Shown: positions 22,461-48,097, numbered from the stretch's first letter. The stretch: DNA of 48,594 nt from Acidimicrobiales bacterium (GCA_046153015.1 JBJXGF010000326.1:1-48594), one strand, 5' to 3'. Notes: a model not told the origin generated them from the letters alone. A program made the numbers and translations.

Positions 22461-22500
22461 AGCGGCAACCACCGGAAGCACAGGTACGGTGTCGGAGGGG
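22461..22500. repeat. stub of the repeat family: flank-module tail plus the first 13 nt of the left end
   Basis: AGCGGCAAC....TACGGTGTCGGAGGGG. It shares AGCGGCAAC and the 17-mer TACGGTGTCGGAGGG with 48053-48090, and then diverges. Confidence 0.6.
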
Positions 22501-22737
22501 CGAGTTGCACCATAATAAAACCACGAGGCGGGGCTGGCGGCGAGTTCAGGATCGCAGCGTGAGCCAACCCTGCTCGGACGGAGTGCTCGAGACGGTACTG
22601 GCGGACGAGCACGGGCCGCTGAGCCGTCGTAGCGGTCGCGTCTCCATGAAGGACGTCACCTCGCATCGGGAGGGCGCGTGGAAATGCGCTCATCGGACGC
22701 GTACAATGCGGGCTATCGATCGCGTGGAATGGGGAGC

Positions 22738-23997
22738 ATGACTGGCCGCAGCTACATCGAGCGACTCGTCGACCCGTGGCTCGCCGAACTTGTTGCCGAC
22801 GTTCCAGCCATCATGCTCGTTGGGCCTCGCGCCACCGGTAAGACGACGACCGCCGCCAGACTCGCCCGGACCGTCCTCCGCCTCGACGACCGCAACGTCC
22901 GTGCCGCGATCACCGCAGATCCTGACAGCGTTCTACGCGACGCCGATCCGCCCGTCCTCGTCGACGAGTGGCAACTCGCACCCGACGTCCTCGCCGCTAC
23001 GAAACGACTCGTCGACGCCGACCCCTCGCCAGGACGATTCCTCCTCGCGGGGTCCGCCGCCGATGACGCCGGCGCCCAGCAATGGCCCGGTACCGGACGA
23101 GTGATCCGGGTCCCACTCTGGAGTCTCACCCAGCGCGAACTCCACACGAAAGTCGCAGGACCGACGTTCCTCGACCGGATCATCGAGGAGATCGACACCA
23201 CCGGCGAGGCGACGTTCCCGCTGCCCGCCGAACACCCCGACACCGCGGGGTACGTGGACCTCGCGTTGGCATCAGGCTTTCCCGAAGCCCTGGCCCGGAA
23301 CTCGGTCAGAACCAGGTCAGCGTGGCTTGACTCCTACCTCGACCACCTGATCGGCCGCGACGTCGCTCTCCTCACAGACGTGCGAAACCCAGGCAAACTG
23401 CGACGTCACCTTCGAGCGATCGCCGCATCGACGGCCGCGTCACCCACCTTGGCGACACTCGCCGAGGCCTCCGAACTCGACCGGTCCACGATCGAACGGT
23501 ATGACCTCCTCCTCGAACGACTATTCGTCACCGAGCAAGTACCGGCATGGTCCTCGAACCGGCTCACCCGCATCACCCGACGCCCGAAACGCTACATATG
23601 CGACCCCGCGCTCGCAGCCACAGCCCTCGGCGTCGACCGGCGAGCCGTGCTTCGCAACGCCGACCTACTCGGACGGATCATCGACACCTTCGTCGCCGCC
23701 CAACTTCGACCCGAACTCAGCCTCGGCACCCGACCAGCAGCCATGTACCACCTCCGAGAACAGTCCGGCCGGCGCGAAATCGACGTCATCCTCGAACGCC
23801 GCGACGGCGCCATCGTCGCCATCGAAGTAAAGGCCGCGACCGCCGTCGACGAACACGACGCCCGCCACCTCGCCTGGCTCCGCGACCAACTACCCACCGG
23901 CAACGTCCGAGCCGGCCTGGTCCTCTACACCGGAACCCTCGTCCGCCCACTCGGCCGAAACCTCTGGGCAGTCCCGATCTGCACGCTCTGGGCATGA
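22738..23997 (+). CDS. AAA-type ATPase of the AAA_14 + DUF4143 kind
   Basis: Walker A LVGPRATGKTT. VLVDEWQLAPDV (Walker B region). The C-terminal EIDVILERRDGAIVAIEVKA is nuclease-fold-like. I set the start at ATG 22738. Confidence 0.8.
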   Translation: MTGRSYIERLVDPWLAELVADVPAIMLVGPRATGKTTTAARLARTVLRLDDRNVRAAITADPDSVLRDADPPVLVDEWQLAPDVLAATKRLVDADPSPGRFLLAGSAADDAGAQQWPGTGRVIRVPLWSLTQRELHTKVAGPTFLDRIIEEIDTTGEATFPLPAEHPDTAGYVDLALASGFPEALARNSVRTRSAWLDSYLDHLIGRDVALLTDVRNPGKLRRHLRAIAASTAASPTLATLAEASELDRSTIERYDLLLERLFVTEQVPAWSSNRLTRITRRPKRYICDPALAATALGVDRRAVLRNADLLGRIIDTFVAAQLRPELSLGTRPAAMYHLREQSGRREIDVILERRDGAIVAIEVKAATAVDEHDARHLAWLRDQLPTGNVRAGLVLYTGTLVRPLGRNLWAVPICTLWA

Positions 23998-24263
23998 CAG
24001 CTGACCCTTCGTGAGCCACAGCCGAGATCTGTCCCCGACCGTTCGACACGCCTCGTGAACCTGGACGGGAGCGGGGGTAGGACGAAAGTGCCCAACGAAC
24101 CAGTCAAGCGGGGTGACCGAGGTCTCGAATCGGGCGACCTCAACGCGCCCTTCGCCGAGCCGCCGCTCTGGCCGCGCACCGACTTGAACCTCCACCGGTG
24201 ACAGCAACGACCTGACCAGCCATGCTGAGGATCCCGTTGACCTCAACCGTGGGGGGTCAATTC

Positions 24264-24378
24264 GGTGTCGGAGGGGGGACTTGAACTCGCCGCACGCCAC
24301 CGGCGGTAAGCGGCAGGGAGCGGCAGCTACCGGCGTTGAGCTGCACGTTTCTGGTGGTCGTGGTCGCTGGATGCCGCT
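24264..24378. repeat. copy 2 of the repeat family (left two-thirds only)
   Basis: GGTGTCGGAGGGGGGACTTGAACTCGCC...GGCAGCTACCGGCGTTGAGCTGCAC...GGTCGCTGGATGCCGCT. Similarity stops abruptly at 24378. Confidence 0.8.
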
Positions 24379-24384
24379 CCCTCA

Positions 24385-24702
24385 TCGGCCCAGCTGATCT
24401 CGTATTCGTCTTGGGGGCGCTCGACGTAGCTGGAGACAATCTGAGCGCCGACCTGGTCGCGCCGGTGCCGGTCTATGAGCCGTAGCAGTCCGAGCCGTAC
24501 CGCTTCGGAGCGGCTGGCGCAACGCCGGCGGCGACGAGTTGGTCGACCTCTCGAACACCTGGACGTCCAACCCGAGGGTGTCGCGCAGCCGGTGGTTCAT
24601 GAACAGCAGACTCCCCCGTGCCGCTCGCGCTCCGACGGGTCTCCGACGCGCCAGCCACCCTGCTCTTTGCGTCAGGAAACGGTAAACCCCCGCCACACCC
24701 AC
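24385..24702 (-). pseudogene. LysR-type regulator, N-terminal HTH remnant with frameshifts, divergent from the TauD gene
   Basis: YRFLTQRAGWLARR....LRDTLGLDVQVFERSTN, followed in another frame by QLVAAGVAP, follows the LysR pattern (..F..v.e.gs..AA..L..LE..LGv.LFeRs.r...LT.AG). No effector domain is present. Confidence 0.4.
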
Positions 24703-24740
24703 ATGCGGCGCGAGACTGGTGCGGACATGGAGGTGCAGCG

Positions 24741-25649
24741 ATGGAACGTCCGATGATCGAGACGACGGGCGCGACCTTGGGAGCGGTGGTGAGCGGCGTT
24801 CGGCTCGCCGCGCTCGAGGGAGAGGAGTGGGACGCGATCCACGAAGCGTTCCATCGCCACGGTGTACTGGTGTTCCCCCGCCAGCACCTGAGCGAAGTCG
24901 AACAAATGGCGTTCGGGCAGCGCTTCGGAGCGCTCTCCATCGAGATCCTGCTCCTGTCGAACCGCCGTGAGGACGGCAACCTTCTCCCAGCCGACGACCC
25001 GCTCATCACCTTGCTCCAAGGCAACGAGGGCTGGCACACCGACAGCTCGTTCAAGCGCCTGGCCGCCAAGGCGTCGATCCTGTCTGCTCGCGAAGTGCCG
25101 AGCGATGGGGGTGAGACCGAGTGGGCCGATATGCGCGCCGCCTACGACGCCCTCGAGCCCGACCTACGGGCGCGTGTCGAGGGCCTGCAGGCACACCATT
25201 CGCTGGACCACTCCCAAGCCAAGGTTGGCGCGACGTCGGCGTCGACCGCCGCCGCCCTTCAGGCCCTGGCCTACCGCGGGGCACGGACGGCCGATCCGGG
25301 CGCCACAGTGACGCCGAGCAACGGGGCCGACGCGGGCCGGACGGACCCGCTGCGCCCGCTGGTGAAGTTCCATCCGGTGACCGGGCGGCCCGCGCTGTTC
25401 ATCGGTCGCCACGCCTACGGCATACCCGGGCTCGAAGCTTCGGAGTCGGAACGGCTGCTCGAGGAGTTGCTGGCTTTGGCGTGCCAGCCGCCCCGGACGT
25501 ACCGGCATCGTTGGGCCCCGGGAGACGTCGCTATCTGGGACAACCGGTGTGTGCTGCACCGGGCTCGCCCTTACGACACCAACCAAGGTCGGGTCATGGT
25601 CCACACGCGGGTCGCCGGGGACCCTGCTACAGAGCTCGCTACGGCCTGA
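24741..25649 (+). CDS. TauD/TfdA-family Fe(II)/2-oxoglutarate dioxygenase
   Basis: MERPMIETTGATLGAVVSGVRL.., EGWHTDSSF (HxD), RVMVHTRVAG. GGAGG lies 7 nt upstream of ATG 24741. Confidence 0.9.
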   Translation: MERPMIETTGATLGAVVSGVRLAALEGEEWDAIHEAFHRHGVLVFPRQHLSEVEQMAFGQRFGALSIEILLLSNRREDGNLLPADDPLITLLQGNEGWHTDSSFKRLAAKASILSAREVPSDGGETEWADMRAAYDALEPDLRARVEGLQAHHSLDHSQAKVGATSASTAAALQALAYRGARTADPGATVTPSNGADAGRTDPLRPLVKFHPVTGRPALFIGRHAYGIPGLEASESERLLEELLALACQPPRTYRHRWAPGDVAIWDNRCVLHRARPYDTNQGRVMVHTRVAGDPATELATA

Positions 25650-25789
25650 AGGTCACCCCGAACCGAACACCGCCCCGCTGGTGTCCTGTCAGGCAGAGCA
25701 GCGTCTTGTGTGCCCGTCCCGAGAGTTTCGGCGAGGGGCAATGCCACAACCCGTGCGAGAAAGGTAGCAGTTGCCGGCTTTGCTCCTCT

Positions 25790-25909
25790 GCTCGCGCCCA
25801 GCGCCTTCGCCGCTTCGAACACGAGGGTAATCCCACTCGTCAACATGACCATTGAAGCGATGAAACCCGCCGCGACGGTCGAGACGGAGAATTCCTTGAA
25901 CAGTGACAC
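25790..25909 (-). pseudogene. BenE-family N-terminal fragment (~40 codons)
   Basis: MSLFKEFSVSTVAAGFIASMVMLTSGITLVFEAAKALGAS parallels MSILKDFSLSTVTAGFVSALVGLATGVTLIFEAANRLGAT of the intact BenE. The remainder of ORF 25571..25909 is unrelated. Confidence 0.5.
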
Positions 25910-25968
25910 TCGGGCAAGCTACGGCGCGGTGCGCCGAAACGTCAGCGAGGCCCGGCGGCCCGGGGCGC

Positions 25969-26619
25969 TCACCAGTGGTCCCAGTGGAGGATCTCCTGCA
26001 ACGGTCGCCGCGCCGCTGGCCGGAAGTCGGTGCCGATGGTGTACGCGGTCAAGATGTTGGCGATCTGGGTGACGCCGGCGGGGAGCTCGATGATGGCGTT
26101 CGCTTCGTCGTTGAAGAACGTGTGCATGTTGGTCCAGCACGTGCCCAACGCACGGGACCGTGCCGCGAGCATGAAGCTCCACGCCGCCGGGATGACCGAG
26201 CCCATCAGCCCGCCCATGAACTCGGGACGGACCCGCTCAAGCGTGCCCTCGAAACAGGGGAACACGTGCAACGGCACCTCTTGGACGTGCGCTGCCAGGT
26301 ACTCGAGCGACGCGATGATCGGCGCTGCGGCGCGCTGCTGGCCGGCGTCGTGATAGCTCAGGTTGTGCACGGCGATGGGCAACGTGCGATAGATCTCCAG
26401 CCCACGACGAAACAGCTCCCCCAATGCGCGACGGCGCTCGGGGTCCGACACCACCACGAAGTGGAACTGCTGTTGGTTCGAACCGGACGGGGCTTGCTGG
26501 GCGAGCGCTATGCAGCGCTCGATGACCTCTCGCTCCACTGGTCGACGCAGATCGAGGCGCTTGCGCACGGTACGAGTCGTTGAGAGCAGATCGTCGGGCG
26601 TGAGGTCGAGTATCTCCAT
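25969..26619 (-). CDS. nitroreductase family protein
   Basis: 216 aa. TTRTVRKRLDLRRPVEREVIERCIALAQQAPSGSNQQQFHFVVV is a typical nitroreductase N-terminus. Confidence 0.85.
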   Translation of the reverse strand: MEILDLTPDDLLSTTRTVRKRLDLRRPVEREVIERCIALAQQAPSGSNQQQFHFVVVSDPERRRALGELFRRGLEIYRTLPIAVHNLSYHDAGQQRAAAPIIASLEYLAAHVQEVPLHVFPCFEGTLERVRPEFMGGLMGSVIPAAWSFMLAARSRALGTCWTNMHTFFNDEANAIIELPAGVTQIANILTAYTIGTDFRPAARRPLQEILHWDHW

Positions 26620-26759
26620 GCTGAAATCATGCTCGCCGCTTGAGGAGCAGCGGAGCTCGGACCAGCCATGACTTGGGATCGCCAGCCTTCACCGGTGACG
26701 TCCTGCTCGGTACGCAGCAGTGCCGTAACCGCCGCCGTGATGGTCTCGGACCGGTCGCT

Positions 26760-26951
26760 CGGCTGGTTGCGCTACCTCGACCGCAAGGCGCACGTTGCAG
26801 TCGTAGGCGACGCGGGGCGATCGAATCGGGTCTGGCTGCGTTCGCACACATCGGGGTCACCGACTTCGTGGCCGCCGGGCCCCCGCGGGAAGCATCGGCC
26901 ACGGCCACCGTCGAGCTGTGGGCGTCCCTCGCAGCCGCCGGCCCGCGCTGA
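26760..26951 (+). pseudogene. possible LLM-family C-terminal remnant (frameshifted)
   Basis: ..KAHVAVVGDAG in one frame and IESGLAAFAHIGVTDFVAAGPPREASATATVELWASLAAAG in another resemble the C-terminal ..vvGdp..v...l.af..aGvtdfv.. end of LLM oxidoreductases. Confidence 0.3.
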
Positions 26952-26991
26952 CGCGCACCGGCGCAGTAATCGAGGCAGGCGCCGTGGGCGG

Positions 26992-27462
26992 TCAGTCGGT
27001 GAGCACGGGCGGGTCGAGGACGCCGACCTTGGCGCACTGGTGGCGGTAGCGCGACAGCACGCTGGCCGCGTCGGTCACCGACGCGACCGAACCATCGGGT
27101 GCCAGGTTGAGGTTCGACCCGTAGATCTGGAACCACACATCGGTGATCTCGGTGTTGTCAGCGGGCACGTTGAGTGTGTGGATCGACCCGGCGGGCTCGA
27201 AGAGGAACGAGCCAGCGCGGTTCACGTACTCGCTCTCCAGGTAGTGCCACGCACCGGCCAGCGTGTAACCGAAGACCTGGCCGGTGTGCTTGTGGGTCTG
27301 CACGAGCGTCCCCGGGGCGAACCGGTTCCGCACGATCCACAACCCCTCTCGCTCCTTGGCCACGAGCAGCTTCATCTCGCCGCCGAAGCCGTCCGGCACC
27401 CAAGGAAGGTCGGCCTCGCCGCGATGGATGGCCGACGGTGCAGTCTCGAATGCGATCGCCAT
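26992..27462 (-). CDS. cupin-domain dioxygenase (2,4'-dihydroxyacetophenone dioxygenase-like)
   Basis: LPWVPDGFGGEMKLLVAKEREGLWIVRNRFAPGTLVQTHKHTGQVFGYTLAGAWHY..FLFEPAGSIHTL. The start is ATG 27462, or upstream at 27501. Confidence 0.75.
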   Translation of the reverse strand: MAIAFETAPSAIHRGEADLPWVPDGFGGEMKLLVAKEREGLWIVRNRFAPGTLVQTHKHTGQVFGYTLAGAWHYLESEYVNRAGSFLFEPAGSIHTLNVPADNTEITDVWFQIYGSNLNLAPDGSVASVTDAASVLSRYRHQCAKVGVLDPPVLTD

Positions 27463-28037
27463 GCTCAGGACGGTAGCCCGCGATCCGCGGTCCACCGGCA
27501 ATGGCAGCGACGAACGCTACAGGCCGCAGCCGCGGGGTTCAGGACAGCGGCGGGCGAGGATGCGGGGCTCCTTGTTTGGCATCTGCGAGGGGCCGGGCCG
27601 AAGCCCGACCCTGTACCCCAGGCGCGTCGCGCCGGCAATGGCGGCGAGATCGAAGCGCCATTGGGCGGCCGGGTTGGCGATATCGGACGTCACCCAGCCG
27701 AACGAACGCCGCTCCCCGTAGCGGTCGACGAAACAGGGAACATCCCACTGGCCGATCGCCTCGTGGGTGTTGGAGCCAGCCGCGTGCACGACCGGTGGCG
27801 CGGCGGACAAAGGGTGATTGCCCGGTCGACAACGTGGCGGGCGCGGCGTTCCTTTGCGAGTCGCCCATCCCGATCGGGTCCGGTGCGATACGGACAAGCT
27901 GGCCAACCCGGCAGTATCGAAGGGCGCGGTGCCGTCGCTGGGGATGGGCAGCAAACTCGTCAAAGGCCCCCTGCCCGCTCGTAGGGCCTGGCCCCACCTC
28001 GGCCTCCTCGATCGGTGACGTCCACTACTGTCCAGCC

Positions 28038-29468
28038 ATGAGTGACGACGTGGCATTTTGGCCCGCCCATCGCCAAGCAGCGGCCATCCGTAGCCGAGAG
28101 CTGTCCAGCGTGGAGCTGCTCGAGCACTATCTCGGTCGCATTGAACGCCACAATCCCGCCATCAACGCGGTGGTCACCCTGGCGGAGGAACCGGCGCGGC
28201 TAGCGGCACGCGCCGCCGACGCAGCCACCGTGGCCGGCGGGGACCTCGGCCCGTTACACGGCGTGCCCCACACGATCAAAGACGCCATCGAAACGGCCGG
28301 AATCCGTTCAACGGGCGGGGCGGTGGAGCTGACCGACCACGTGCCCACCCACGATGCGCCCGCAGTGGCCTCGTTGAAGCGGGCCGGCAGCATCGTGTTC
28401 GGCAAGACCAACCTGCCGCGCTGGTCCGGAGACGGGCAGAGCTACAACGAACTGTTCGGCGTCACCAACAACCCCTGGGATCTCGGCCGCACCCCGGGAG
28501 GGTCCTCCGGCGGCGCGGCAGCGGCAGTCGCCGCCGGGCTCACCAGCTTCGAGGTCGGCACCGACATCGGCGGCTCGGTGCGCATGCCATCCACGTTCAG
28601 CGGCATCTGGGGGCACAAACCGAGCTTCGGTCTCATCCCCACCCTCGGTTATCTCGACAGCGTCGGCGGCGGACACATCGAAGCGGATGTCAACGTGTTC
28701 GGGCCAATGACCCGTTCGGTGGACGACCTGGAACTCCTGCTCGACATCATGGCCGGACCGAGGCCCGACCGCGCACCCGCATGGCGGCTGGAACTGCCTG
28801 CCCCTCGCCACACCCGGCTGGGCGATTTCCGGGTCGGGGCCTGGCTTGATGACCCAGCTTGCCCGATCGACCACGAAGTACGCGCCGTGCTGGAGCGGGT
28901 CGTGGACGAACTGGAGGGGGCCGGTGTGGCGGTGGATCGTACCGCCCGCCCATCGATCGACTTCGCCGCGGCAGCGAAGTTGGGTATCCAACTGATCAGC
29001 GTTGCCGGCAGCGTCAGCATGAGCGACGACGAGATGGCCGACCTGGCGGAGAAGTCACGCGGCGCCGCCAACCTCGCCCAACGCCACCACACCTGGCTGG
29101 CACGCGACCTGCGCCGAACGGAGCTGCGCGCCGCGTGGGCGGAGTACTTCCGTTCCTACGACATCCTGCTGTGCCCGGTGAGCGTGACCTCGGCGTTCCC
29201 GCATCAGACGAGTGGCAGCTGGCGCGACCGCACACTGATGGTGAGCGGCGTGGAGCGGCCCTACACCGACCTCGTCGACTGGACCGCGATGGTGGGCATG
29301 GCCTACCTGCCGGTGACGACACCGCCGTTGGGTCAAACCGCCAGCAGTCTGCCGGTCAGCGTGCAGGTCGTGGGGCCTTACTGCGAAGACCGCACCGCCC
29401 TACACTTCGCACGCCTCCTGGCCGAGGTCACCGGGGGTGGCTACAGCCAGCCTCCTGGCTGGGTCTGA
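28038..29468 (+). CDS. amidase (amidase-signature family)
   Basis: LHGVPHTIKDAIETAG, GGSSGGAAAAVAAG and GTDIGGSVRMPS are AS-family motifs. I set the start at ATG 28038, inside the long ORF 27501..29468. Confidence 0.9.
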   Translation: MSDDVAFWPAHRQAAAIRSRELSSVELLEHYLGRIERHNPAINAVVTLAEEPARLAARAADAATVAGGDLGPLHGVPHTIKDAIETAGIRSTGGAVELTDHVPTHDAPAVASLKRAGSIVFGKTNLPRWSGDGQSYNELFGVTNNPWDLGRTPGGSSGGAAAAVAAGLTSFEVGTDIGGSVRMPSTFSGIWGHKPSFGLIPTLGYLDSVGGGHIEADVNVFGPMTRSVDDLELLLDIMAGPRPDRAPAWRLELPAPRHTRLGDFRVGAWLDDPACPIDHEVRAVLERVVDELEGAGVAVDRTARPSIDFAAAAKLGIQLISVAGSVSMSDDEMADLAEKSRGAANLAQRHHTWLARDLRRTELRAAWAEYFRSYDILLCPVSVTSAFPHQTSGSWRDRTLMVSGVERPYTDLVDWTAMVGMAYLPVTTPPLGQTASSLPVSVQVVGPYCEDRTALHFARLLAEVTGGGYSQPPGWV

Positions 29469-29566
29469 GCATCAGGCGGACTCCCCTGCCGGGTCATCGC
29501 CTGTGGCCGACGGTGACCTAGGCTGGCGGCGGACCCGGGTTCCGTGAGCGGGGCTGATCCGCCCCG

Positions 29567-39971: not shown

Positions 39972-40723
39972 ATGATAGAGCTGTCTGATCTGACCCCGGC
40001 GGCGGGTGAGGGATGGGCCTTGCTTTTCGAGTTGGCGGAGGAGGACGACCAGTCGTGGGTCCTGATCGGCAGCCAAATGATGCACCTTCTCGCGGTCGAG
40101 CTCAACGCGGCGTTCATCCGTCCCACCGACGATGTGGATGTGGTAGTGAACGTGCGCACCCGCCGATCGGGCACGGAATGGTTGAGCGGCTGGCTGCTGG
40201 CACGTGGCTTCGAGTCCGCCGGTATCAACGCGGACAACATCGGACATCGCTTCACCCGGGCGGTGTCCTCTGCTCCAGGAACGGTGGTCTTCGACGTGCT
40301 AGCGCCAGAGGGGCTGGGCAACCGGGCGAGGATCTATACGCTTCGCCCGGCCCGCACCGTGCAGGTGCCGGGCAGTGTGCAGGCCTTGCAGCGCAGCGAG
40401 TTGGTCGCGGTGAGCGCCACGGACATAGCGGGTGGCCGGACTGAGGGCCGCGTCCGCCGCCCCTCGCCACTGGGCGCACTATCGGAAAGGCAGCCGCGAC
40501 CCGCATTGTCGGCCGCGACAACGGCGAGCGCGATTGGCAAGACGCAGCACTGCTGCTTTCTGCCATCGACCCATTCGCCGTCGATGACCTGACGAAGAAG
40601 GACCGCCAGCGGTTGTCGTTCCTCAAACCGTTGGGCGACGAGGCACACCCAGCCTGGCGTCCCTTCGACAACGCTGCGCAGCGCACCGGTAGCGCAGCCC
40701 TCCAACTGCTGCTGCGCAGCTGA
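39972..40723 (+). pseudogene. nucleotidyltransferase-fold protein (AbiEii/MNT-like), apparent frameshift at ~40445-40480
   Basis: The minimal NTase signature is LIGSQMMHLLAVELNAAFIRPTDDVDVVV (GS..DxD). After ..VRRPSPLGAL the listed frame turns to nonsense. The frame ending at TGA 40721-40723 reads IGKAAATRIVGRDNGERDWQDAALLLSAIDPFAVDDLTKKDRQRLSFL.., and is open only from 40445. Confidence 0.55.
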
Positions 40724-41087
40724 CCTGAGCCGACCTGCGGTAGCGCCGATCGAGCGCCAACCAGACCGTCATCGACGGCGGCCGCATGCCAGTCTGGAGG
40801 TTCGCCCCGCTTTACCGGTCTCGTCGAGCAATCCGGGGTCCCATCAAGCTGGCGAGCGACATCCGCCAGCGCTCGCTCCAAAATGCGGAACGGGATTCGG
40901 CTCTGGGCTCCACAAAGACTGGACCACCGGCTTGGCCGATTCGTAAACTTCGACTGCGTCCAAACCATGTTCAGCACCAATCACGAGCGGGCGTGGGTGA
41001 GATCTAACCACACCCAGTAGTCGCCCCTGGGCAACGGCCTGGCGCCCCGCCCCAGCCACCAACGATTGCAAGCCGCTGCCGCTGTCC

Positions 41088-41204
41088 TCAGTCAGCACTC
41101 CGAAAAGCACAACGTGGACCTACCGGCGAACGAACAAGCCAAACTGCCTGCCGTTTGAACTCAAGATCGAACCGCGATCGTCGCCCATAAGAAGTTCCTC
41201 TCAT
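41088..41204 (-). mobile_element. IS3-family OrfA (HTH_Tnp_1) N-terminal remnant
   Basis: MRGTSYGRRSRFDLEFKRQAVWLVRS resembles the ..RR.FS.EFK..AV.LV.. start of IS3 OrfA. There is no intact continuation. Confidence 0.4.
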
Positions 41205-41272
41205 CCCATCCTGAAGGAACTCCAGGATGGGATGAGGTTCAGACTGATCCGCGCCGCCGCTTCCTGGCACCT

Positions 41273-44200
41273 TCAGCGCAGACGCAGCTGGCCTCGACCG
41301 TCCCGAAGGACCTGGCCGCCGTTGATGAGGTCGTGCACATGCCGCTCAAATGCCGCGTCGATATCCGCGCCTACGCGGCGCCAACCAAACAACCTGGCCC
41401 ACTCCATGCGCAGCTCTTCGGGTATGGCGCCACCAGCGTCGTGCAGTTTGTAGAGCAGTGCTAGTCGCAGTTCCTCTGGCGGGACGTGCCCCACGGCTCT
41501 GACCGAATGCTCCTCGTTTGGGATACGCACGGCCGTCTGCGAGCCTGGGACACGGAAGAACTGGCCGTCGGTCTCAACTTCTTGACGGCTGACGGCCTGT
41601 TGGGCCGCCGCGTCGAATGCAGCCTGGATCCTGGACCCCGCACGCTTAATGTTCCAGGCGGACCGTACCGCATCCAGTACTGCGGAGTGGTGGAGCGGAC
41701 CGAACTCGCGCACAACTTCAACAAGCATTGCTCGAACGACCCCCCGAGCGGCTGGATCCACGAAATCGAGTGCTGGCGGCGTGGTGCGCACGGTCGGCGG
41801 AACGAAGAATTCGGCCCACTCCGGACGGGCATCGAAGTCGTTTCGTTCTGTTACGACCATTACCGGGGGGCGCCGTTCCTCCGCCTCCGGCTGTCCCCGC
41901 CGGCTTGGTGCGGTGCTCAATGCAGCCTTGACCGCGTCACGGATGCGTTGCAGTTCCCGTTCCCGATCGCTGAGCCACGCTGTGCTCCAGATTCGATGGA
42001 TGTGCCACCCCAGACCCTCGAGAACCTCCTGGCGCAGACGATCACGGTCGCGGGCGACTTTGGAGGAATGGTAGGTGTAGCCGTCGCATTCGACGCCGAG
42101 CACGAAGGAACCCGGCAACGTCGGGTGCTTGATCCCGATGTCTATTCGGTAGCCGGCCACGCCCACCTGCGGGACGGCCTCAAGCCCGAGCCGACGGATC
42201 GCCGCGCCGACATCCTCCTCGAACGGGCTGTCCGGGCCAAGCGAACTGCCGGTCACGTCGAGCGCGAGTGCAGCAGGTCCTCGTTCAGCGAAGTCGAGAT
42301 ATCGGGCCAGGTGGCGCAGCGACGGGGTCTCCGACGTGATCTGCCCGGCCACGACCGAACTGACAACCTCAAGGCGGTGACGCGCTCTGGTTACTGCCAC
42401 GTTGAGGCGGCGCTCTCCCCCTTGGCGGTTCATGGGTCCGAAATTCATCGTCAACTTGCCGTGCTCATCCGGCCCGTACCCGACCGACAAAATGATGATA
42501 TCCCGCTCGTCCCCTTGGACGTTCTCTAGGTTCTTGACAAAGAACCCTGACAGCCGGTCGGCGTCCTCAAGTTCACGTAGTTCCGGCTCGCGCTCGCTCC
42601 GACGTTCGATCTCGGTTTCGATACAGATTTGCTGGGCGCTGGACAGTGCGACGACACCAATACTCAAGCCGGGGTGGTTGCGGCGATGGAAAAGGACCCG
42701 GTCAACTACCTCCGCCGCCTCTATAGGGTTGTCGCGACTGGTCCCCCGCCGGTAGTGGCCGTTGACCTTGAACAGCTCGACCCCGAGATCCGGGGCTGTA
42801 TGGATCGCTCCGGGGAACGTGTGGAGCCGTCCTTCATAAAAGGAGTGGTTGGAGAACGCGATGAGGTTCTCGTGACGGCTGCGGTAATGCCAGCTCAGAG
42901 GAAGGGTAGGCAACCCCTGGGCCCGGCAACGGTCGAGGACAGACTCGAAATCAAGGAGCTCCTCCCCCTCGGCTTCCCAATCGTCCTCCCCGACGGTCCG
43001 AGCGAAGAAGTCGGTAGGAGGCAGCTGCTTGGGGTCTCCTGCGACGATGAGCTGGTTACCGCGATAGATGGCGCATATTGCGTCCGCTTCTCGGACCTGG
43101 GATGCCTCGTCGAATATGACAACATCAAACCGAAGCGACGGTGGAAGGAACTGGGAGACCGATAGCGGGCTCATCATGAAGCACGGCATCAACCGCTGCG
43201 CGGCCTCCCCCGCTTCGCTCAGAAGCCGACGTACGGGCTTGTGGCGCACTTTGAGCTGCGCTTGCTGGCGGATGACACCCGCCCCGCCGGCCAGCGAGCG
43301 AGGGCGGAGCTGGGCGCAGGCGTTGATCACCTTCGATGCCGCATCAGCGATGAGCTCCCGGTCAAGTGCCTGGAAATCCGCTACGAGCGCATCTCGGTCT
43401 GTTGAGCGGGTCGGCTGGAGTCGGCTGTCGACGGACATCGTGTCGTCCAGCCATCGGGTCAGGGCGGCGCGCTCGATGGTGTCAGCGATGTCCGTGGCCG
43501 CAGCCCGGCTGTGCTCGAGAGTCGAAACAACGGGCTCCCACCCGCTCTCGCACAACCACGACCTGGCTTGTGCGTAGCTGTGCCATTCCTCGATGTCGTT
43601 GACCGTCGAGCTGAGCGCAGCGAGGAGTTCCACGCCGCCCTCGAACGTTTCCATATCGGCGGCGAGCGTGGCGGCATAGGCCGGGTCGAACTCGCCCATC
43701 AGTGCGGCTACCGCCTTGTCGAACATTGCCTTGGCACCGCGCAACGCGGCCGCGTCGAGCGAGGCGCCGAGAATTGCTGCTGCCGTGCGGGGCGGGACCG
43801 CGCCCCGAAGGCACTCCCGCATCTCAGCCACCCACGCCGCGGCGCTTCTAAGAAGATCGGGGTGTGGATCGACCGCGAGAGGCCCCAAGATCGGCTGCAA
43901 GTGGGCGAGGTCTTCACGCACTAGAGGGTCCAACCGATCGAGTTCCCGCCGGGCGTGTGCTATCTGTCGCGCATCCGCTATCAGGAGTGGTTTGGCCGCT
44001 GCGGTGTCCAGAACTCGGACAACTTGGGCGACATGGTGCGCCGTCGTGGCCAGTGACCCGCACCAGCTCGCAACCTCGCTCAGTGGGCGCCGAAACACCA
44101 CCGCGGCGTGTGCGCCCAGCGTCGAGCTCAGCCGGCCCGTGGCCAGCGCCGTCGCCGCGGCGCGCGCTGCCGCCACCGCCGCGGGGAACCGGGGATCAGG

Positions 44201-46768
44201 GTCCGACCCGACTGCGAGTTGCCGGGCGAGCGCGGGTGAATCCACAAGGCCAGCGGCCAGTTCAAGCGCCTTGTCTGCGAGGCTCAGCGCCCGCTCGAGC
44301 GTGGCGAAGTCGGCGGCATCGCGCGAAGGGTAGTAACGGGCGCCGACCTGGGGGCCGTGGACGCGCTCAGCCTGGGTGATGCGCTGGCGTTCGTCCTGCC
44401 ACTCGATCGCTTCAGCCAGCCGATCGAGCATGTCGCTCGTCACCTTCCCGGTAACGGAGACGCCAGCCAGACTCTTCTTGTCGTGTCGATATTCGGCCTT
44501 CAGCTTTCCGGGTCCGCGATGCACGGTATCGAAACGAGCCTTGAGCGCGCGAAGATCGAGATCGAGCACGGCGGGGCTGAACGTTGTTTGCATCGACACC
44601 GAACGGGCCCGATATCTCTCCAGGAGCTCACGAAGGACCTGGCGCGCCTCATCGAGCGCCGGGCGCGCAGTGGGGTTTAGCCACCAAGGCTCCGGGGGAG
44701 TTGGCGAACCAGCAAGGCTCGCCAACTCCACGAGGCGCAAGGTCGACTCCGCTGACACCTCGACGCCCGCCACACCGAACGCTTCAGCCAGGATGGACGA
44801 TGCGCCCTGGAGTTGTGCGACCCACTGGCCGGCCTCGTCGAGTTGTTGGGCGAGGTCGTCCAGGGCCGAGGCGTGCCATTGGTCAAGCGGGCCGAGCATC
44901 GAATCGGCCTGCTGCACGGCGGCCTCAGCGCCATCCATGGCGTCCGCGATCAGCGGGTGAACGTCGCGCCAGCCCGGCGCCTTGGTTTCGAGCAACTCTA
45001 CGGTGCGCTGATGGTCCACGATGTTTTGTGTCAAGTTTCGTAAAGGCGCAACAAAAGGCGCAAGATCCGGCGCCGTGAGCCAGTCTTGGCCGATCTGCGG
45101 CCGACGTTCGATCAACTCCAACACTGCAAGATATGACGAGACCTGGGATGAGCTCGAGCAGCGGGCGATCACGAGCTCTTGAGCGAGGTTGTCCAATTCG
45201 GCTCGGAGCGTGTCAAGAGCGGCACTGCAGCTGTTCACCCGCCGCCGCAACTCGGCCTGCCGTGACATGCCGCCCGCGGGGTCGCGCAGGTCGCGCCACA
45301 GGAAGTCTTCCCTCCGCGCGATGGGGCCCCAGGCGCGACCGAGGCGCTCTGCGGCGTCCCGGAGCGTGGCAAAGCCCACTGGGCTCAGGTCCTCAGCGGC
45401 GACGCGGGAGATCGGCACATCGGGCAGGTTCCGTAGCTGCGAGATCCGCCCCGCAACATCGTGTATGGATCGCTGAAGAGGCTGGCGAACCTCATTGACG
45501 GCGACCGCGTAGTTGGTGAGCATCTGGCGCTCGCTCGTAAGGCGCGCCCGGCGGCCCGGATCGAAGGTCGACGTTGCGGAGAGTTGCTCCTCGAGTGCCT
45601 TCCCCAGCGCCGTGGCGACAGCCTTGCGGCTGGCGTTGTGCGAGTGCAGCTCCAGGACAAACGGGTCGAGGTGGGCCGCTGCGAGCCGGTTCCGAACGAC
45701 ATCCAGCGCCGCCGCCTTTTCAGAAACGAAAAGCACCGTCTTCCCGTCGGCCATGAGCTGGGCCAAGAAATTGGCGATCGTCTGGGACTTGCCGGTACCT
45801 GGCGGCCCGTCCATCACGAAGCTTCGGCCCTCGCGCGCCGCGAGCAGACACTGCCGTTGAGTTACATCCGCGTCCAGCACCGCGGCCAGCTCCTCGGGCG
45901 GGTGACGCTCGTCCAGCTCCTCCTCGCCGAGCGGCGCGAAATCGAGGTCTTGAGCCATAGCGCTCGTCGGGCCCTCCGCCAGCAGCCGGACCAGCGGGTG
46001 CGCCCCTATCAACTCGGCGTTCTCCTTCAAATCCTGGTAGATCGCCATCTTGTGAAACGTAAAGGTCCGCAGCACTGCAGAATCCCCAACTGTCCACCCG
46101 CTGGCTGCGACCTCGCGCCGGACGAGGGCAAGTACCTCGTTCACGGTCGCGTCGCCGGCCTCGTCCAAGTCGGGAAGCATCAGTCCGAAGTCGCGTTCCA
46201 ACTTGATCTTCAACGCAGGGTTGAGGTATGCCTCAGCCTCATCGGTTTTGGTGAGCCGCCACCGACCAGACTCCATTTCAAGTTCTACCGGCACCAGTAG
46301 CAATGGGCTACGCGCCGGCTTGTCGTCGACATCAATCCAGTTCAGGTGGCCAAGGCCGAGAAACAGAACCCACAGACCGGTGTCCAGGAACTCCTGCCGG
46401 GCCGTTTTGCTCAGCAACTTGAGGCTTCGCTCGATTTGCACCCCGGTGCGGTCGTCGAAAGCCACAACCAACTCGTCCCGGCCGGGCCGATGAACCGGGG
46501 CCGCGCCGGTTCGGGGACTCGGTGGTTCCGGGGGAAGGAAGAACCGCCATCCACGGGACCGGCCGGTGAGGCCTTCCTCAACCTCGACTGCTGGCTGCTT
46601 GAACTCCAGGGATGAGGATCTGGTGTGGGAGAAGTACAACAACTTGTTGCGGCGGCTGAGATCAACCAGGTCTGCAGCCCATCGATCAAGGTGATCTGCC
46701 ACGACACCACTGGCGTGGCTCCCAGGCGTCCCTACAGTCATACGAGCCTTCTCCACCACGTCGCACAT
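41273..46768 (-). CDS. 1831-aa SF1 (Upf1/AAA_11-AAA_12-like) helicase fused to a Vsr/DUF559-like endonuclease and a DUF3320-like tail, with a DUF4011-like N-terminus
   Basis: Walker A MDGPPGTGKS (45785-45808, aa 321-328). Motif II VVIFDEASQV (DEASQ at 43097-43111, aa ~1220). IVAGDPKQLPPT, SWHYRSRHENLI, GGERRLNVAVTRAR. Nuclease block GYRIDIGI..VLGVECDGYTYHSS..RDRDRLRQEVLEGLGWHIHRIW (aa ~1560, nt ~42060-42120). N-terminal DLSRRNKLLYF. Confidence 0.9.
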   Translation of the reverse strand: MCDVVEKARMTVGTPGSHASGVVADHLDRWAADLVDLSRRNKLLYFSHTRSSSLEFKQPAVEVEEGLTGRSRGWRFFLPPEPPSPRTGAAPVHRPGRDELVVAFDDRTGVQIERSLKLLSKTARQEFLDTGLWVLFLGLGHLNWIDVDDKPARSPLLLVPVELEMESGRWRLTKTDEAEAYLNPALKIKLERDFGLMLPDLDEAGDATVNEVLALVRREVAASGWTVGDSAVLRTFTFHKMAIYQDLKENAELIGAHPLVRLLAEGPTSAMAQDLDFAPLGEEELDERHPPEELAAVLDADVTQRQCLLAAREGRSFVMDGPPGTGKSQTIANFLAQLMADGKTVLFVSEKAAALDVVRNRLAAAHLDPFVLELHSHNASRKAVATALGKALEEQLSATSTFDPGRRARLTSERQMLTNYAVAVNEVRQPLQRSIHDVAGRISQLRNLPDVPISRVAAEDLSPVGFATLRDAAERLGRAWGPIARREDFLWRDLRDPAGGMSRQAELRRRVNSCSAALDTLRAELDNLAQELVIARCSSSSQVSSYLAVLELIERRPQIGQDWLTAPDLAPFVAPLRNLTQNIVDHQRTVELLETKAPGWRDVHPLIADAMDGAEAAVQQADSMLGPLDQWHASALDDLAQQLDEAGQWVAQLQGASSILAEAFGVAGVEVSAESTLRLVELASLAGSPTPPEPWWLNPTARPALDEARQVLRELLERYRARSVSMQTTFSPAVLDLDLRALKARFDTVHRGPGKLKAEYRHDKKSLAGVSVTGKVTSDMLDRLAEAIEWQDERQRITQAERVHGPQVGARYYPSRDAADFATLERALSLADKALELAAGLVDSPALARQLAVGSDPDPRFPAAVAAARAAATALATGRLSSTLGAHAAVVFRRPLSEVASWCGSLATTAHHVAQVVRVLDTAAAKPLLIADARQIAHARRELDRLDPLVREDLAHLQPILGPLAVDPHPDLLRSAAAWVAEMRECLRGAVPPRTAAAILGASLDAAALRGAKAMFDKAVAALMGEFDPAYAATLAADMETFEGGVELLAALSSTVNDIEEWHSYAQARSWLCESGWEPVVSTLEHSRAAATDIADTIERAALTRWLDDTMSVDSRLQPTRSTDRDALVADFQALDRELIADAASKVINACAQLRPRSLAGGAGVIRQQAQLKVRHKPVRRLLSEAGEAAQRLMPCFMMSPLSVSQFLPPSLRFDVVIFDEASQVREADAICAIYRGNQLIVAGDPKQLPPTDFFARTVGEDDWEAEGEELLDFESVLDRCRAQGLPTLPLSWHYRSRHENLIAFSNHSFYEGRLHTFPGAIHTAPDLGVELFKVNGHYRRGTSRDNPIEAAEVVDRVLFHRRNHPGLSIGVVALSSAQQICIETEIERRSEREPELRELEDADRLSGFFVKNLENVQGDERDIIILSVGYGPDEHGKLTMNFGPMNRQGGERRLNVAVTRARHRLEVVSSVVAGQITSETPSLRHLARYLDFAERGPAALALDVTGSSLGPDSPFEEDVGAAIRRLGLEAVPQVGVAGYRIDIGIKHPTLPGSFVLGVECDGYTYHSSKVARDRDRLRQEVLEGLGWHIHRIWSTAWLSDRERELQRIRDAVKAALSTAPSRRGQPEAEERRPPVMVVTERNDFDARPEWAEFFVPPTVRTTPPALDFVDPAARGVVRAMLVEVVREFGPLHHSAVLDAVRSAWNIKRAGSRIQAAFDAAAQQAVSRQEVETDGQFFRVPGSQTAVRIPNEEHSVRAVGHVPPEELRLALLYKLHDAGGAIPEELRMEWARLFGWRRVGADIDAAFERHVHDLINGGQVLRDGRGQLRLR

Positions 46769-47164
46769 CTCGGAGCAGGCGACCGGCGAGTCGGACCGTT
46801 GCCTGGGTTGCAGCTAAACCGGTGGCGAGGCTACCGGCTGGGCGGTGAGGATGGACCCAGCCGCCCACTTCGACGCTCCCAGGCGGTCACACCCCGCCCC
46901 GATGTGCAGTACCTGAGCCAGCGAAGTGAGACAGATCGGCGCTAGTTCTGCAATCTGGTGGAATCTAAGATAAGCGACGGTTACCATCAGGCGAACTTTT
47001 TCCGACATTGCCGCGCGGACGGGCTTCAAAGACCTGCGCTGTCGGCACCGGCCGGTGGTGCTAGCGCTGTCGGACAGGTCGACTGCGGTCGTGGAACCGC
47101 GGACGATATGACCGACGATTCGATCCCCGAGCCGTCGCACCATCACCTCCGTTGGAGGAACACC

Positions 47165-47500
47165 ATGCGCCGTCAACTTCTCGCCGCTGCAACCGCTGTT
47201 GCGTCGACCGTGGTGCCCACTACCACCGCAAATGACGTCTGCGGGCAGCGGCACCAACCGCCAGGAGACCGAGGTTTCGTCCTTATGCGAAATTGTCACC
47301 GCCTATCCAACCGGGCGCCGCCGGTTCTTTGACCCTGAGGCGTCAGGGGTACCAACCTCACCGCGACAGCCGTCACGGCCAACCCCGGGTGGCGCTTCAG
47401 CATCGAGCGGGCCACCGGCCTCAACCCCGAGGTGGAGTTCCGCAACGGCACCTCACGTGTCACCTTCCAGGCCCAGTCGAAGACGGCAGGGTCATCGCCG
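47165..47500 (+). pseudogene. secreted-protein gene remnant (signal peptide intact, body frameshifted)
   Basis: GGAGGAA, then ATG 47165 encoding MRRQLLAAATAVASTVVPTTTA (signal-like). Protein-like continuations sit in two other frames (EVSSLCEIVTAYPTGRRRFFDPEA, then GTNLTATAVTANPGWRFSIERATGLNPEVEFRNGTSRVTFQAQ). Confidence 0.4.
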
Positions 47501-47881
47501 AGGTTCGCACCCGACTCGGCTGATCCCAACCAGCTCCCTCCGGGCTGCCGCCGATGTACCGGGGCCCGGAGGGGGTTGAAGCGCTGGCCCGGCCCCTGGC
47601 AAGTCGCCAGGGTCATCACCGCCGGTGGGCTCCCCGCCGTCAGCCCGACACCGCAATGACGCACCAACAGCTGATCACCCGACCTTCGCAGCCTGCTTCA
47701 GCACGCCCCTCCACCCGGACACATCCCGGACGAGATGTCGTCGAACCTCGCTCTCGTCCTTGTCCACCATGTCGCCGACACCCTGATCGAACGTGGCAGG
47801 CCGCCCTCCGGGTCGCCACAAGCGGAGACCCAAACCCCTGCAAGCTGCGCCGGTTAGGGGCTGCGGCGGCGGGGAGCGGAA

Positions 47882-47912
47882 CATTGGCAGATCCATTAGC
47901 AACCGACACACC
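47882..47912. repeat. 31-nt right-end fragment of the repeat family (direct repeat of 38842-38872)
   Basis: CATTGGCAGATCCATTAGCAACCGACACACC versus CATTAGCAAATCCATTAGCAACCGACACACC, 29 of 31 identical. Confidence 0.75.
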
Positions 47913-47952
47913 GGACCGAACCCACTGGGCTGGCCAGGTCGAACGTCGAACC

Positions 47953-48078
47953 AGCCGATGGAGGGGATTCCGCAGCCCCACGTCCGACACTTCGACCCTC
48001 CGGACCCGCACGACCACGGTCAGCGAGATTTCGGGGCCACTGACCGGCAGCCAGCGGCAACGAACGGCAGGTAGCTAC
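47953..48078. repeat. flank module X (copy B)
   Basis: GGGGATTCCGCAGCCCCACGTCCGACACTTCGACCCTCCGGA...GACCGGCAGCCAGCGGCAACGAACGGCAGG is colinear with 38573-38699. Confidence 0.65.
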
Positions 48079-48097
48079 GGTGTCGGAGGGCCGACAC
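48079..48097. repeat. collapsed repeat: left-end stub joined directly to the right-end terminus (perfect 7-bp hairpin)
   Basis: GGTGTCGG AGGG CCGACAC. The first 12 nt of the element are followed at once by its last 7 nt. Confidence 0.6.

Follow-up and report, generated by a model that had tools for sequence, protein, structure and literature searches.

A probable tandem array of recombinase-less genomic islands at a tRNA-Leu gene of an Acidimicrobiia-like actinobacterium

Cargo and repeats in the window

The window considered here, a stretch of 48,594 nt from an Acidimicrobiales bacterium, holds a series of short core repeats, all in the same orientation, with blocks of unrelated cargo between them (Table 1). 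The cargo comprises a toxin–antitoxin pair, candidate defense genes and a catabolic block of about 14 kb. The RHH protein of islet 1 displays 63% identity to the product of the RHH gene adjoining a homologous arm at a related locus (L139). The catabolic block of island 3 codes for a TauD dioxygenase, a nitroreductase, an amidase and both the alpha and beta components of a Rieske ring-hydroxylating oxygenase (all by Pfam); going by the order of the attachment-site parts, this island would be delimited by copy 2 of the repeat (core and P′ arm) on the left and by module M with a core on the right. No recombinase was recovered in the window, either with Pfam on the main ORFs or in tblastn searches with five recombinases from related loci, and the islands of the window appear to be recombinase-less remnants.

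Table 1. Features of the locus, with positions counted from the first letter of the window
Feature	Position	Strand	Description or evidence
Arm-site module	21176..21203	+	GCGATGGCA twice and AGCGACAC; 41 nt left of the 21245 core
Copy 1 (full)	21245..21416	+	22-nt att core and ~150-nt P′ arm
RHH (CopG/BrnA-like) antitoxin, islet 1	21421-21699	-	Pfam
115-aa partner ORF, islet 1	21699-22046	-	Toxin–antitoxin pair with RHH
Module M, copy A2	22396..22487	+	P arm, right end of islet 1
Decayed att core	22488..22510	+	13/13 to tRNA-Leu 3′ end, then 3 mismatches through +22
AAA_14/DUF4143 ATPase, islet 2	22678..23997	+	Pfam; PADLOC candidate defense family PDC-S01
Isolated tRNA-Leu T-arm fragment	24181..24195	+	GACTTGAACCTCCAC, 14/15 to tRNA-Leu positions 15-29
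Copy 2	24264..24381	+	att core and P′ arm, truncated on the right
Island 3 cargo (~14-kb catabolic block)	24382..38573	.	Pfam
Module M, copy B1	38574..38699	+	P arm, right end of island 3
Copy 3 (full)	38700..38872	+	25-nt att core and full P′ arm
Island 4 cargo	39231..46768	.	Pfam, PADLOC
HTH_17 DNA-binding protein, island 4	39231-39944	+	Pfam
206-aa ORF, island 4			
1831-aa DUF4011/SF1 helicase-nuclease, island 4	41273-46768	-	Pfam; PADLOC PDC-S37 and Hhe
Arm-site module, island 4 P arm	47868..47912	+	ATTGGCAG / ATTAGCAA and CCGACAC; right-end fragment of the repeat, 166 nt left of core
Module M, copy B2	47964..48078	+	P arm of island 4
Terminal 12 nt of the minus-strand tRNA-Leu gene	48079..48090	+	B half of attL
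Start of polymorphic element E0	48091..48303	+	CCGACACAAACCCC..., inverted repeat of GTGTCGG
Tandem TGTGAGATT repeat in E0	48283-48303	+	Sequence

The recurrence of left ends claimed in the original prediction is borne out: GGTGTCGGAGGG is found five times on one strand, as against 0.76 expected from shuffles, being exact at 22488, 24264, 38700 and 48079 and bearing one mismatch at 21245 (all on the plus strand). The longer core GTGTCGGAGGGGGGACTTGAAC occurs with at most three mismatches at 21246, 22489 and 24265, with none expected; the core at 38700 contains one extra G, which is absent from the contigs of runs X2 and X3. The conserved flank module described earlier (M) is equally genuine: when its copies are aligned without the core and compared with dinucleotide shuffles (n = 300), B1 against B2 scores 43 (shuffles 17.9 ± 2.4, none of 300 as high), A2 against B2 scores 38 (0/300) and A2 against B1 scores 32 (1/300). 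M is not present in the flanks of 21245 and 24264, and comparison with the related loci revealed no homologue outside the window. It is the P arm of the attachment site, opposite to the P′ arm, and is placed only at the right ends that the model presented below predicts for its type 1 elements.

Past their core, copies 1–3 run on for about 150 nt with phased direct repeats, and by analogy each looks like the core and P′ arm of a tyrosine-integrase attachment site. Phased repeats of the TTGCCGCT type occur in the arm of copy 1, whose end is formed by two ATTAGCAA units followed by CCGACAC. A site in an Acidimicrobiaceae MAG (L008) shares 98% identity with copy 2 over 158 nt. The phased TTGCCGCT/GCGGCA repeats are also present in the arms and in M. 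The layout of the right end, two direct repeats followed by CGACAC, is shared by four modules on the plus strand (right limits at 21203, 21413, 38869 and 47909) against 0.66 expected on both strands; paired direct repeats are found on both sides of the core at 50–200 nt from it, as in arm-type attP sites. CCGACAC itself is seen both at the end of the long arms and right after the 12-nt stub at 48079. No arm follows the core at 22488, and this stub could be assigned to either of the two types distinguished below. The degenerate pieces previously reported at 21154–21205 and 24171–24210 also proved real. The first contains a repeat-pair module that agrees in layout with the left arms of L139 and that, in our reading, served as P arm to an older element further to the left; the second contains a tRNA-Leu fragment that constitutes another att remnant.

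The tRNA-Leu 3′ end and its allele at 48079

Sequence comparison shows that the 3′ end of tRNA-Leu, i.e., its acceptor strand and T arm, constitutes the left end in reverse complement. The match extends over 22–25 nt, up to the T loop, in copies 1–3, over 13 nt at 22488 and over 12 nt at 48079. A metagenome scan with the left end as query retrieved at least 120 loci; among the 135 matches, 76 corresponded to full-length tRNA-Leu genes encoded on the opposite strand and 59 to partial ones. ARAGORN places a tRNA-Leu at the match in L139, L056, L130, L128, L159, L075 and L080, and it is from these calls on related loci that the tRNA identity of the window's core is taken; on the window, ARAGORN predicts no tRNA gene and Rfam gives no match at the gathering score. 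The tRNA had not been recognized in the first reading. Direct repeats with the same sequence as the 3′ portion of a tRNA gene, all in a single orientation, thus form the boundaries, as is characteristic of genomic islands integrated at such genes. Two earlier claims do not survive: the sequence after 22488, thought to be unrelated, continues the match to the tRNA and the core up to about +22, and the supposedly discrete 172-nt element with two ends is in fact a tRNA core plus an arm.

Contigs from runs X1–X3 are identical to the window over 47547–48090, with zero mismatches, and then run into an intact tRNA-Leu(CAG) located exactly at 48079, their sequence past GGTGTCGGAGGG being GGGACTTGAACCCCCACGTCCTTGCGGACAAGGAACCTGAATCCTGCGCGTCTGCCAATT. 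Hence, 48079 is the true tRNA locus, and in sibling populations the B2 copy of M directly adjoins the intact tRNA-Leu(CAG). The window's own junction was also recovered, in a contig of run X3 spanning 48067–48220; the two alleles, both of which occur in run X3, part exactly after 48090. In run X1 the depth is 0 across 48105–48350 and the allele joining M to the tRNA is present. These population data, consisting of short contigs at about 4-fold depth, thus reveal a presence/absence polymorphism with its breakpoint at the att core, and the window's allele carries one more, polymorphic insertion (E0) at 48079.

Recombinases at related loci and two crossover points

At other loci, recombinase genes adjoin the core, L078 being the sole case in which the gene is not on the left. 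Large serine recombinases (Pfam: Resolvase, Recombinase and Zn_ribbon) are present at about 19 loci and tyrosine integrases (Phage_integrase and Arm-DNA-bind_4) at about 11. Many of the serine recombinase ORFs end in the C-terminus ...RVGGGT with their stop codon within the T loop, and in L008 a pseudogene of a large serine recombinase abuts the copy-2-like core. Serine elements with both ends visible leave 10–11 nt of the tRNA at the far junction, with GTGTCGGAGGG followed by CCCGATC... in L128 and GTGTCGGAGG followed by AATCG... in L035; L044 and L129 display stubs of the same kind. The attP reconstructed for L128 has outer inverted repeats, AGTCGGGTTT / AAACCCGACT, centered at the breakpoint. 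The junction at 48079 conforms to this pattern: the CCGACAC inverted repeat comes directly after a 12-nt identity, and the breakpoint and outer inverted repeats are like those of L128 and L035. This agrees with what is expected of large serine recombinases, whose attB and attP share a very short identity around a central dinucleotide, inside a dyad-symmetric site of about 40–50 bp. Rather than a collapsed copy with fused ends, as was first proposed, the "hairpin" at 48079 is, by analogy, better read as the dyad symmetry of a large-serine-recombinase site, with CCGACAC as its partner half; we read the CCGACACAAACCCC stretch of E0 as the P′ half-site of the corresponding attP.

Direct-repeat pairs are found in many loci, 60–130 nt to the left and 150–190 nt to the right of the core. 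In L036 one repeat occurs on both sides of the core, next to an integrase with Arm-DNA-bind_4, and for two sites of the T-loop type the arm repeats are found again beside elements with tyrosine integrases (L057 with L061; L041/L144 with L086). The window's own arms match those of L008, L091, L139 and L067, with L139 presenting an island bounded as in the window and ending at a real tRNA-Leu. All four islands with ATTAGCAA-type arms and both ends visible (three in the window, one in L139) are devoid of an integrase; hence, the assignment of these arms to tyrosine integrases is made by analogy. The earlier suggestion of repeated recombination, with tandem accretion, at a single att-like core holds, the core being the 3′ end of tRNA-Leu, but the assumption of a single crossover does not, there being at least two such points, at about +10–12 (serine type) and at about +22–25 in the T loop (arm-bearing type).

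These observations bear on other ways of accounting for the repeats. The 48079 junction could be a local deletion, in which either the interior of the tRNA-Leu gene was lost or a copy-3-type site lost everything from +12 to its terminal CCGACAC. GGTGTCGGAGGG and CCGAC are indeed the sequences found at the 3′ end (12 nt) and at the 5′ end of the tRNA gene, CCGACACA is the end of the long arms, and inverted repeats are able to promote such deletions. However, with the M–tRNA allele present in run X1 and depth 0 at 48105–48350, the upstream flank of the tRNA there is not the window's sequence from 48098 onward; moreover, in none of the four runs does a tRNA-Leu contig extend into ACAAACCCC, the breakpoint is that of serine-recombinase elements elsewhere, and the right-hand sequence has its own tandem repeat at +205, like the left parts of other elements. 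We hence regard a deletion as improbable.

Less probable still is a reading of the 172-nt unit, with its inverted ends GGTGTCGG...CCGACACC, as a MITE-like non-autonomous element or as a tRNA-like structured RNA, the stubs then being excision footprints or collapsed copies. Its ends do form inverted repeats of 7–8 nt, either strand folds somewhat better than shuffles (z −2.3 to −4.0), and at the 48079 stub the left end is joined to CCGACACA, a sequence also seen at the right end of copy 3 and at that of the 47868–47912 fragment. Yet the left 22–25 nt are identical to the 3′ end of tRNA-Leu, and at 48079 sibling genomes have the tRNA itself; copies 1 and 3 lack a target-site duplication, and neither Rfam nor ARAGORN matches the unit. 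The interior varies across the wider family, with only the direct-repeat layout conserved, and the fold stems from opposed GCGGCA/TGCCGC repeat arrays. A central 18-mer has a real copy in just one of about 185,000 reference genomes, whereas a spreading MITE would be more widespread. The small, gene-sized, recombinase-free segments (the toxin–antitoxin pair and the single ATPase), set between imperfect palindromes of attC-like length, might also evoke integron cassettes with a single integrase at the array end, an explanation to which we attach next to no credence: the sequences have no RYYYAAC/GTTRRRY boxes, the window has no integron integrase, all sites have a tRNA end as their common core, two supposed cassettes are as large as 9 and 14 kb, and the two-sided arm architecture is typical of attP.

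Insertion history and its significance

Taken together, we consider it probable that integrated genomic islands have piled up in tandem next to a tRNA-Leu gene, on its 3′ side. This gene is on the minus strand and its 3′ end hence points to lower coordinates. Upon integration, the attP of an element would recombine with the tRNA 3′ end, such that the tRNA is rebuilt on the right and its terminal bases are left joined to element DNA on the left. In type 1 (copies 1, 2 and 3) the crossover would take place in the T loop, at about +22–25, thereby retaining 22–25 nt of the tRNA. The left part of its attP would be the P arm, with the arm-site module, a spacer and module M, and the right part the P′ arm of about 150 nt, with phased repeats and, at its end, two direct repeats and CCGACAC; by analogy, this layout suggests tyrosine integrases with an arm-binding domain. 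In type 2 (48079) the crossover would fall immediately past GGTGTCGGAGGG, at about 10–12 nt from the end of the tRNA, in a short, dyad-symmetric site as in large serine recombinases; such symmetry would bring CCGACAC after the stub and make the whole read as a hairpin.

We infer both which recombinase acted on which site and the order of events. The oldest, leftmost insertion would be the element ending at 21203, followed by islet 1 (21245–22487), islet 2 (22488–24263), island 3 (24264–38699), island 4 (38700–48078) and, as the newest, E0 from 48091 onward, whose far end, beyond the window's right edge, is expected to have a serine recombinase gene and the tRNA-Leu. At least five islands would thus have been integrated here in series, none with its own recombinase, and these are likely either fixed by now or mobile only with an integrase supplied in trans.

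The structure is of a known kind and reveals no new kind of mechanism. Williams, in 2002, reportedly laid out a scheme of sublocations for integration into tRNA genes. As in integration by tyrosine integrases with arm-type sites (lambda, L5 and pSAM2 type), the sequence in common starts at the tRNA 3′ end and reaches the T loop; this loop acts as the overlap region, and the two halves of the stem act as core sites. Integration restores the tRNA, and each arm of the large attP bears paired direct repeats. Unlike in those systems, the P arm is unusually long, with the arm module about 170–200 nt from the core and M in between, a constant CGACAC follows the variable repeats, and no cognate integrase was recovered. 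The ssrA islands of Dehalococcoides (McMurdie et al. 2011, PMC3146451) are likewise tandem islands downstream of one small-RNA gene, a short direct repeat of whose 3′ end delimits each island; they insert in the T loop or close to it, and a large (CcrB-like) serine recombinase is involved. Many of them are without an integration module and have been interpreted as cis-mobilizable elements joined by accretion (PMC3146451). In contrast, the target here is tRNA-Leu rather than tmRNA, there are two recombinase classes and two crossover points, the ORF of the serine recombinase extends into the target, the window is without a recombinase, and the host is an Acidimicrobiia-like actinobacterium. The tycheposons of Prochlorococcus (Hackl et al., bioRxiv 10.1101/2020.12.28.424599) are similar in having cargo and defense elements stacked at tRNA genes, partial-tRNA flanks, degraded remnants deeper in the island and subpopulations differing by single elements. 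They differ in phylum, recombinases and att architecture, and in that activity was shown by PCR there, as against the co-occurrence of alleles in metagenomes here.

The region further resembles streptococcal CIMEs and ICE–CIME accretion, although its blocks may simply be decayed islands. Since the islands with both ends visible have no recombinase and yet retain a long, elaborate and partly conserved attachment region, one might speculate, though we think it rather unlikely, that the arm-bearing islands are recombinase-less cargo cassettes inserted and excised at tRNA-Leu by a shared integrase encoded elsewhere. If true, this would amount to a tRNA-anchored integron- or CIME-like system in Acidimicrobiia, as opposed to simple decay.

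More generally, a puzzling repeat becomes a readable history, with the scars parsing 27 kb into dated insertion units. They locate a true tRNA-Leu integration hotspot, at which E0 is still polymorphic in the environment, and mark tRNA-Leu in Acidimicrobiia-like genomes as a site common to two recombinase classes, whose cuts lie about 10 nt from each other. This can be used in the prediction of islands and in finding new serine integrases with known targets.

The repeated core as a tRNA-Leu 3′ end

The left-end motif GGTGTCGGAGGG has exact matches at 22488, 24264, 38700 and 48079; a fifth site, at 21245, has one mismatch. All five lie on the plus strand (0.76 sites expected). Self-comparison of the window recovers two full repeat copies (21245-21416 and 38700-38872), a copy (24264-24381) cut on its right and a fragment of the right end (47868-47912). 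Motif and repeats stand at the positions of the original prediction. The 22-mer GTGTCGGAGGGGGGACTTGAAC recurs with up to three mismatches at 21246, 22489 and 24265 and never in shuffled sequences. On the opposite strand the left end reads GTTCAAGTCCCCCCTCCGACACC, comprising the T loop, half of the T stem, the 3′ strand of the acceptor and the discriminator base of a tRNA. Within the window itself ARAGORN calls no gene and Rfam gives no match. A metagenome scan with the pattern GTGTCGGAGGG-N3-4-ACTTGAAC returned at least 120 loci. Among the 135 matches listed, 76 are complete genes called tRNA-Leu by ARAGORN, while the other 59 hold the tRNA 3′ part alone, followed by unrelated DNA. The partial matches form classes by the point at which tRNA identity ends: one ends at about +41-58, in the anticodon loop, and another at about +22-28, in the T loop; copies 1-3 of the window fall in the T-loop class.

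The window is metagenomic and was detected in biofilter and sediment runs, which contain sibling alleles of the site at 48079. Contigs from three runs (X1, X2 and X3) match 47547-48090 with zero mismatches and then pass from GGTGTCGGAGGG into GGGACTTGAACCCCCACGTCCTTGCGGACA...; aligned to a reference tRNA, the same contig runs on as ...AGGAACCTGAATCCTGCGCGTCTGCCAATT, a tRNA-Leu with anticodon CAG. Run X3 also holds the window-type junction (contig 48067-48220), and in X1 the depth is 0 over 48105-48350 although the tRNA allele is present. Because sibling contigs enter the tRNA at this point and X1 has no depth beyond it, 48079 is the tRNA-Leu locus. What sets the window allele apart from the sibling alleles is DNA starting exactly after tRNA base 12, and the DNA after 48090 is not the normal upstream flank of the tRNA. 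When that flank was sought in the runs by aligning the tRNA, the contigs ended inside the tRNA. Contigs from X1, X2 and X4 agree with the window up to 48502 and then differ (CTCACGCGATCC...); its right edge (48502-48594) is also variable in the population.

Proposed attachment-site arms and two types of crossover

In copies 1-3 a core of 22-25 nt is followed by about 150 nt of phased direct repeats: GCGGCA-type repeats near the core, three TTGCCGCT-type repeats at a spacing of about 10 nt farther along, and two ATTAGCAA repeats 12 nt apart with CCGACAC at the end (ATTAGCAA-N4-ATTAGCAA-CCGACAC). The TTGCCGCT set opposes the GCGGCA set, and the stretch therefore folds as a hairpin. The module of two repeats plus CGACAC is also present on the left side of cores (47868-47912 and 21176-21203), so that the plus strand has four, whereas 0.66 would be expected over the two strands together. 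The conserved flank predicted before left ends was recovered at three sites as a module of about 115 nt (M; 22396-22487, 38574-38699 and 47964-48078), which even without the core scores far above dinucleotide shuffles and shares the GCGGCA-type repeats (family D11); alignment against shuffles found no M upstream of 21245 and 24264. In copy 3, the G-run at 38709 has seven G instead of six, the extra G being missing in X2 and X3 contigs; this reflects either polymorphism of a homopolymer or an error in the assembly of the window.

Many unrelated loci, each with its own repeat sequences, carry one pair 60-130 nt to the left and another 150-190 nt to the right of the core. At L036, the same repeat lies on both sides and an arm-binding tyrosine integrase (Pfam Phage_integrase with Arm-DNA-bind_4) adjoins. 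Likewise, the right-arm repeats of two T-loop-type sites are the left arms of tyrosine-integrase elements (L057/L061 and L041+L144/L086). By analogy with this general two-sided plan and its tyrosine integrases, the core with its 150 nt may be read as the core and P′ arm of a tyrosine-integrase attP, and the arm module, spacer and M as the putative P arm. An integrase linked to ATTAGCAA-type arms was not found. The flanks of the left ends, M included, were considered as recombinase gene remnants, but six-frame translation and a tblastn search using the C-terminus of the L008 recombinase were both negative. A viral scan with the arm-module pattern gave chance matches alone, in low-GC contigs, and phage and plasmid collections held nothing matching 38540-38900; a scan of the genome collection with the central 18-mer gave 33 matches, only the one in L008 being real.

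Where the related loci have a recombinase gene beside the core, it lies to the left, on the tRNA 3′ side, except in L078: among the loci listed, about 19 encode large serine recombinases (Pfam Resolvase, Recombinase and Zn_ribbon_recom) and about 11 tyrosine integrases. Serine-recombinase elements with both ends visible retain just 10-11 nt of tRNA at the far junction, as in L128 (GTGTCGGAGGG running into CCCGATC...) and L035 (GTGTCGGAGG running into AATCG...), with comparable short stubs in L044 and L129. The attP of L128, rebuilt from both junctions, has outer inverted repeats (AGTCGGGTTT and AAACCCGACT) centred on the crossover point, which fits the short dyad-symmetric sites of serine recombinases. 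This serine-type crossover is the recurrent breakpoint right after GGTGTCGGAGGG that had been predicted; however, it is not the sole one, as copies 1-3 stop in the T loop with 22-25 nt, and the notion of one common crossover is revised accordingly. The supposed collapsed copy at 48079 is also reinterpreted: CCGACAC at 48091 is an inverted copy of GTGTCGG, which the dyad symmetry of a probable serine-type site would explain, and a further element (E0) is taken to follow. The reverse complement from 48091 onward loosely resembles the recombinase 3′ ends of L075, L121, L151 and L008, which is suggestive only. In an excised circle of E0, attP would be the recombinase 3′ end joined to CCGACACAAACC.

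A local deletion at 48079, by which either a tRNA or an arm collapsed, may still account for the site, because CCGACACA likewise terminates long arms, but it is disfavoured by the zero depth beyond the junction in a run having the tRNA allele and by the agreement of the breakpoint with the serine type. It is also unlikely that the 172-nt unit is a MITE or a structured RNA: its core is a tRNA end, target duplications and Rfam matches are absent, the interior is unconserved across the wider family, and there is one real copy among about 185,000 reference genomes. An integron-like cassette array fails on both attC motifs and integrase.

A proposed serial array of islands and its cargo

We propose that the order of these parts along the window reflects serial integration, with the newest unit adjoining the tRNA. 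The M sites coincide with the right ends that this model gives to arm-bearing units and occur nowhere else. The predicted accretion at an att-like site is supported.

Units of the window under the serial-integration model
Unit	Position	Content
Older element	ends at 21176-21203	visible part: P-arm module only
Islet 1	21245-22487	core and P′ arm, RHH antitoxin and partner ORF, small ORF, M
Islet 2	22488-24263	decayed core, DUF4143 ATPase, isolated piece of a T arm (24181)
Island 3	24264-38699	core and truncated P′ arm, 14 kb of oxygenase/amidase/nitroreductase genes, M
Island 4	38700-48078	core and full P′ arm, HTH_17 protein, 1831-aa helicase-nuclease, arm module, M
tRNA end and E0	48079-48090, then 48091 onward	12 nt of tRNA, then polymorphic E0

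In the related MAG L008, the counterpart of copy 2 (98% identity over 158 nt) comes after a serine recombinase pseudogene that ends in RVGGGT*, which suits a serine-type unit formerly in place of islet 2; the core at 22488 could be of either crossover type. The RHH gene beside copy 1 is 63% identical to that beside a homologous arm in L139, where a 4.6-kb island without recombinase ends at a true tRNA-Leu. Throughout the window, Pfam and tblastn detected no recombinase gene or fragment.

As for cargo, the helicase-nuclease (41273-46768, minus strand; DUF4011/AAA_11/AAA_12/MTES_1575/DUF3320) matches PDC-S37 (1225 bits) and Hhe in PADLOC, and the DUF4143 ATPase (22678-23997, plus strand) matches PDC-S01 (374 bits), so that candidate anti-phage genes are part of the island cargo. 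Immediately after the copy-3 arm (39231-40592, plus strand) come an HTH_17 protein, weakly matching AbiEi_4, and a family-less 206-aa ORF. The two could form an AbiE-like toxin-antitoxin pair or, alternatively, consist of an excisionase-like DNA-binding protein and its partner. A 135-nt non-coding stretch (41108-41242; 87% identity to L008 3885-4022) lies just 3′ of the helicase-nuclease gene and, in L008, just 5′ of a truncated serine recombinase. Its minus strand contains a motif resembling a T loop (GGTTCGATC), and the stretch may be a further small repeat or att remnant.

Three joints in the population were also considered. An apparent 21417-to-24263 deletion in X2, joining a right end to a left end, was a cross-mapped 47605-48090 contig. 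A joint in X1 going back from 47972 to 38583, as in a circle junction, comes from a 115-nt contig with 8 mismatches, and therefore more probably represents a sibling variant whose M at 38574 has its own upstream arm module. Finally, an X1 contig lacks exactly 24043-24384 (342 nt, with the T-arm fragment and copy 2); this deletion is real, but its ends share TCG and do not lie at the core, and it is a microhomology variant rather than a site-specific event.

Stacked elements at tRNA-Leu

The closest described system is the Dehalococcoides array of tandem ssrA islands, in which 20-bp repeats derive from the tmRNA 3′ end, insertion is in the T loop and a CcrB-like serine recombinase is involved; many of its islands have no integration module and were interpreted as cis-mobilizable elements (PMC3146451). 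Tycheposons are likewise stacked beside tRNAs, leaving partial-tRNA scars and differing between subpopulations (bioRxiv 10.1101/2020.12.28.424599). The window array belongs to an already known kind, tandem islands at a small-RNA or tRNA gene. Our literature search found no account of a serine integrase that has tRNA-Leu as its target.

Many of the serine recombinase ORFs enter the tRNA and end ...RVGGGT*, their stop codon lying within the T loop. In one clade (L075, L080, L128, L159, L035, L132, L151, L121 and L008), whose integrated form ends in this way, the ORF stops at +16 to +18 relative to the tRNA-Leu 3′ end, and its reading frame spans the inferred crossover point. Excision as a circle would exchange the last codons for a different, longer tail (L128: ...RVGGPDQSKPDW...); integration state would therefore alter the C-terminus of the enzyme.

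Several tRNA-adjacent units carry defence genes without an integrase (GmrSD and HEPN in L061). Many loci (L143, L147, L139, L043, L050, L118 and L122) have at least two tRNA-Leu cores no more than a few kb apart, and the arm repeats on the two sides differ. Thus, unrelated elements are commonly stacked at tRNA-Leu in marine and soil metagenomes.
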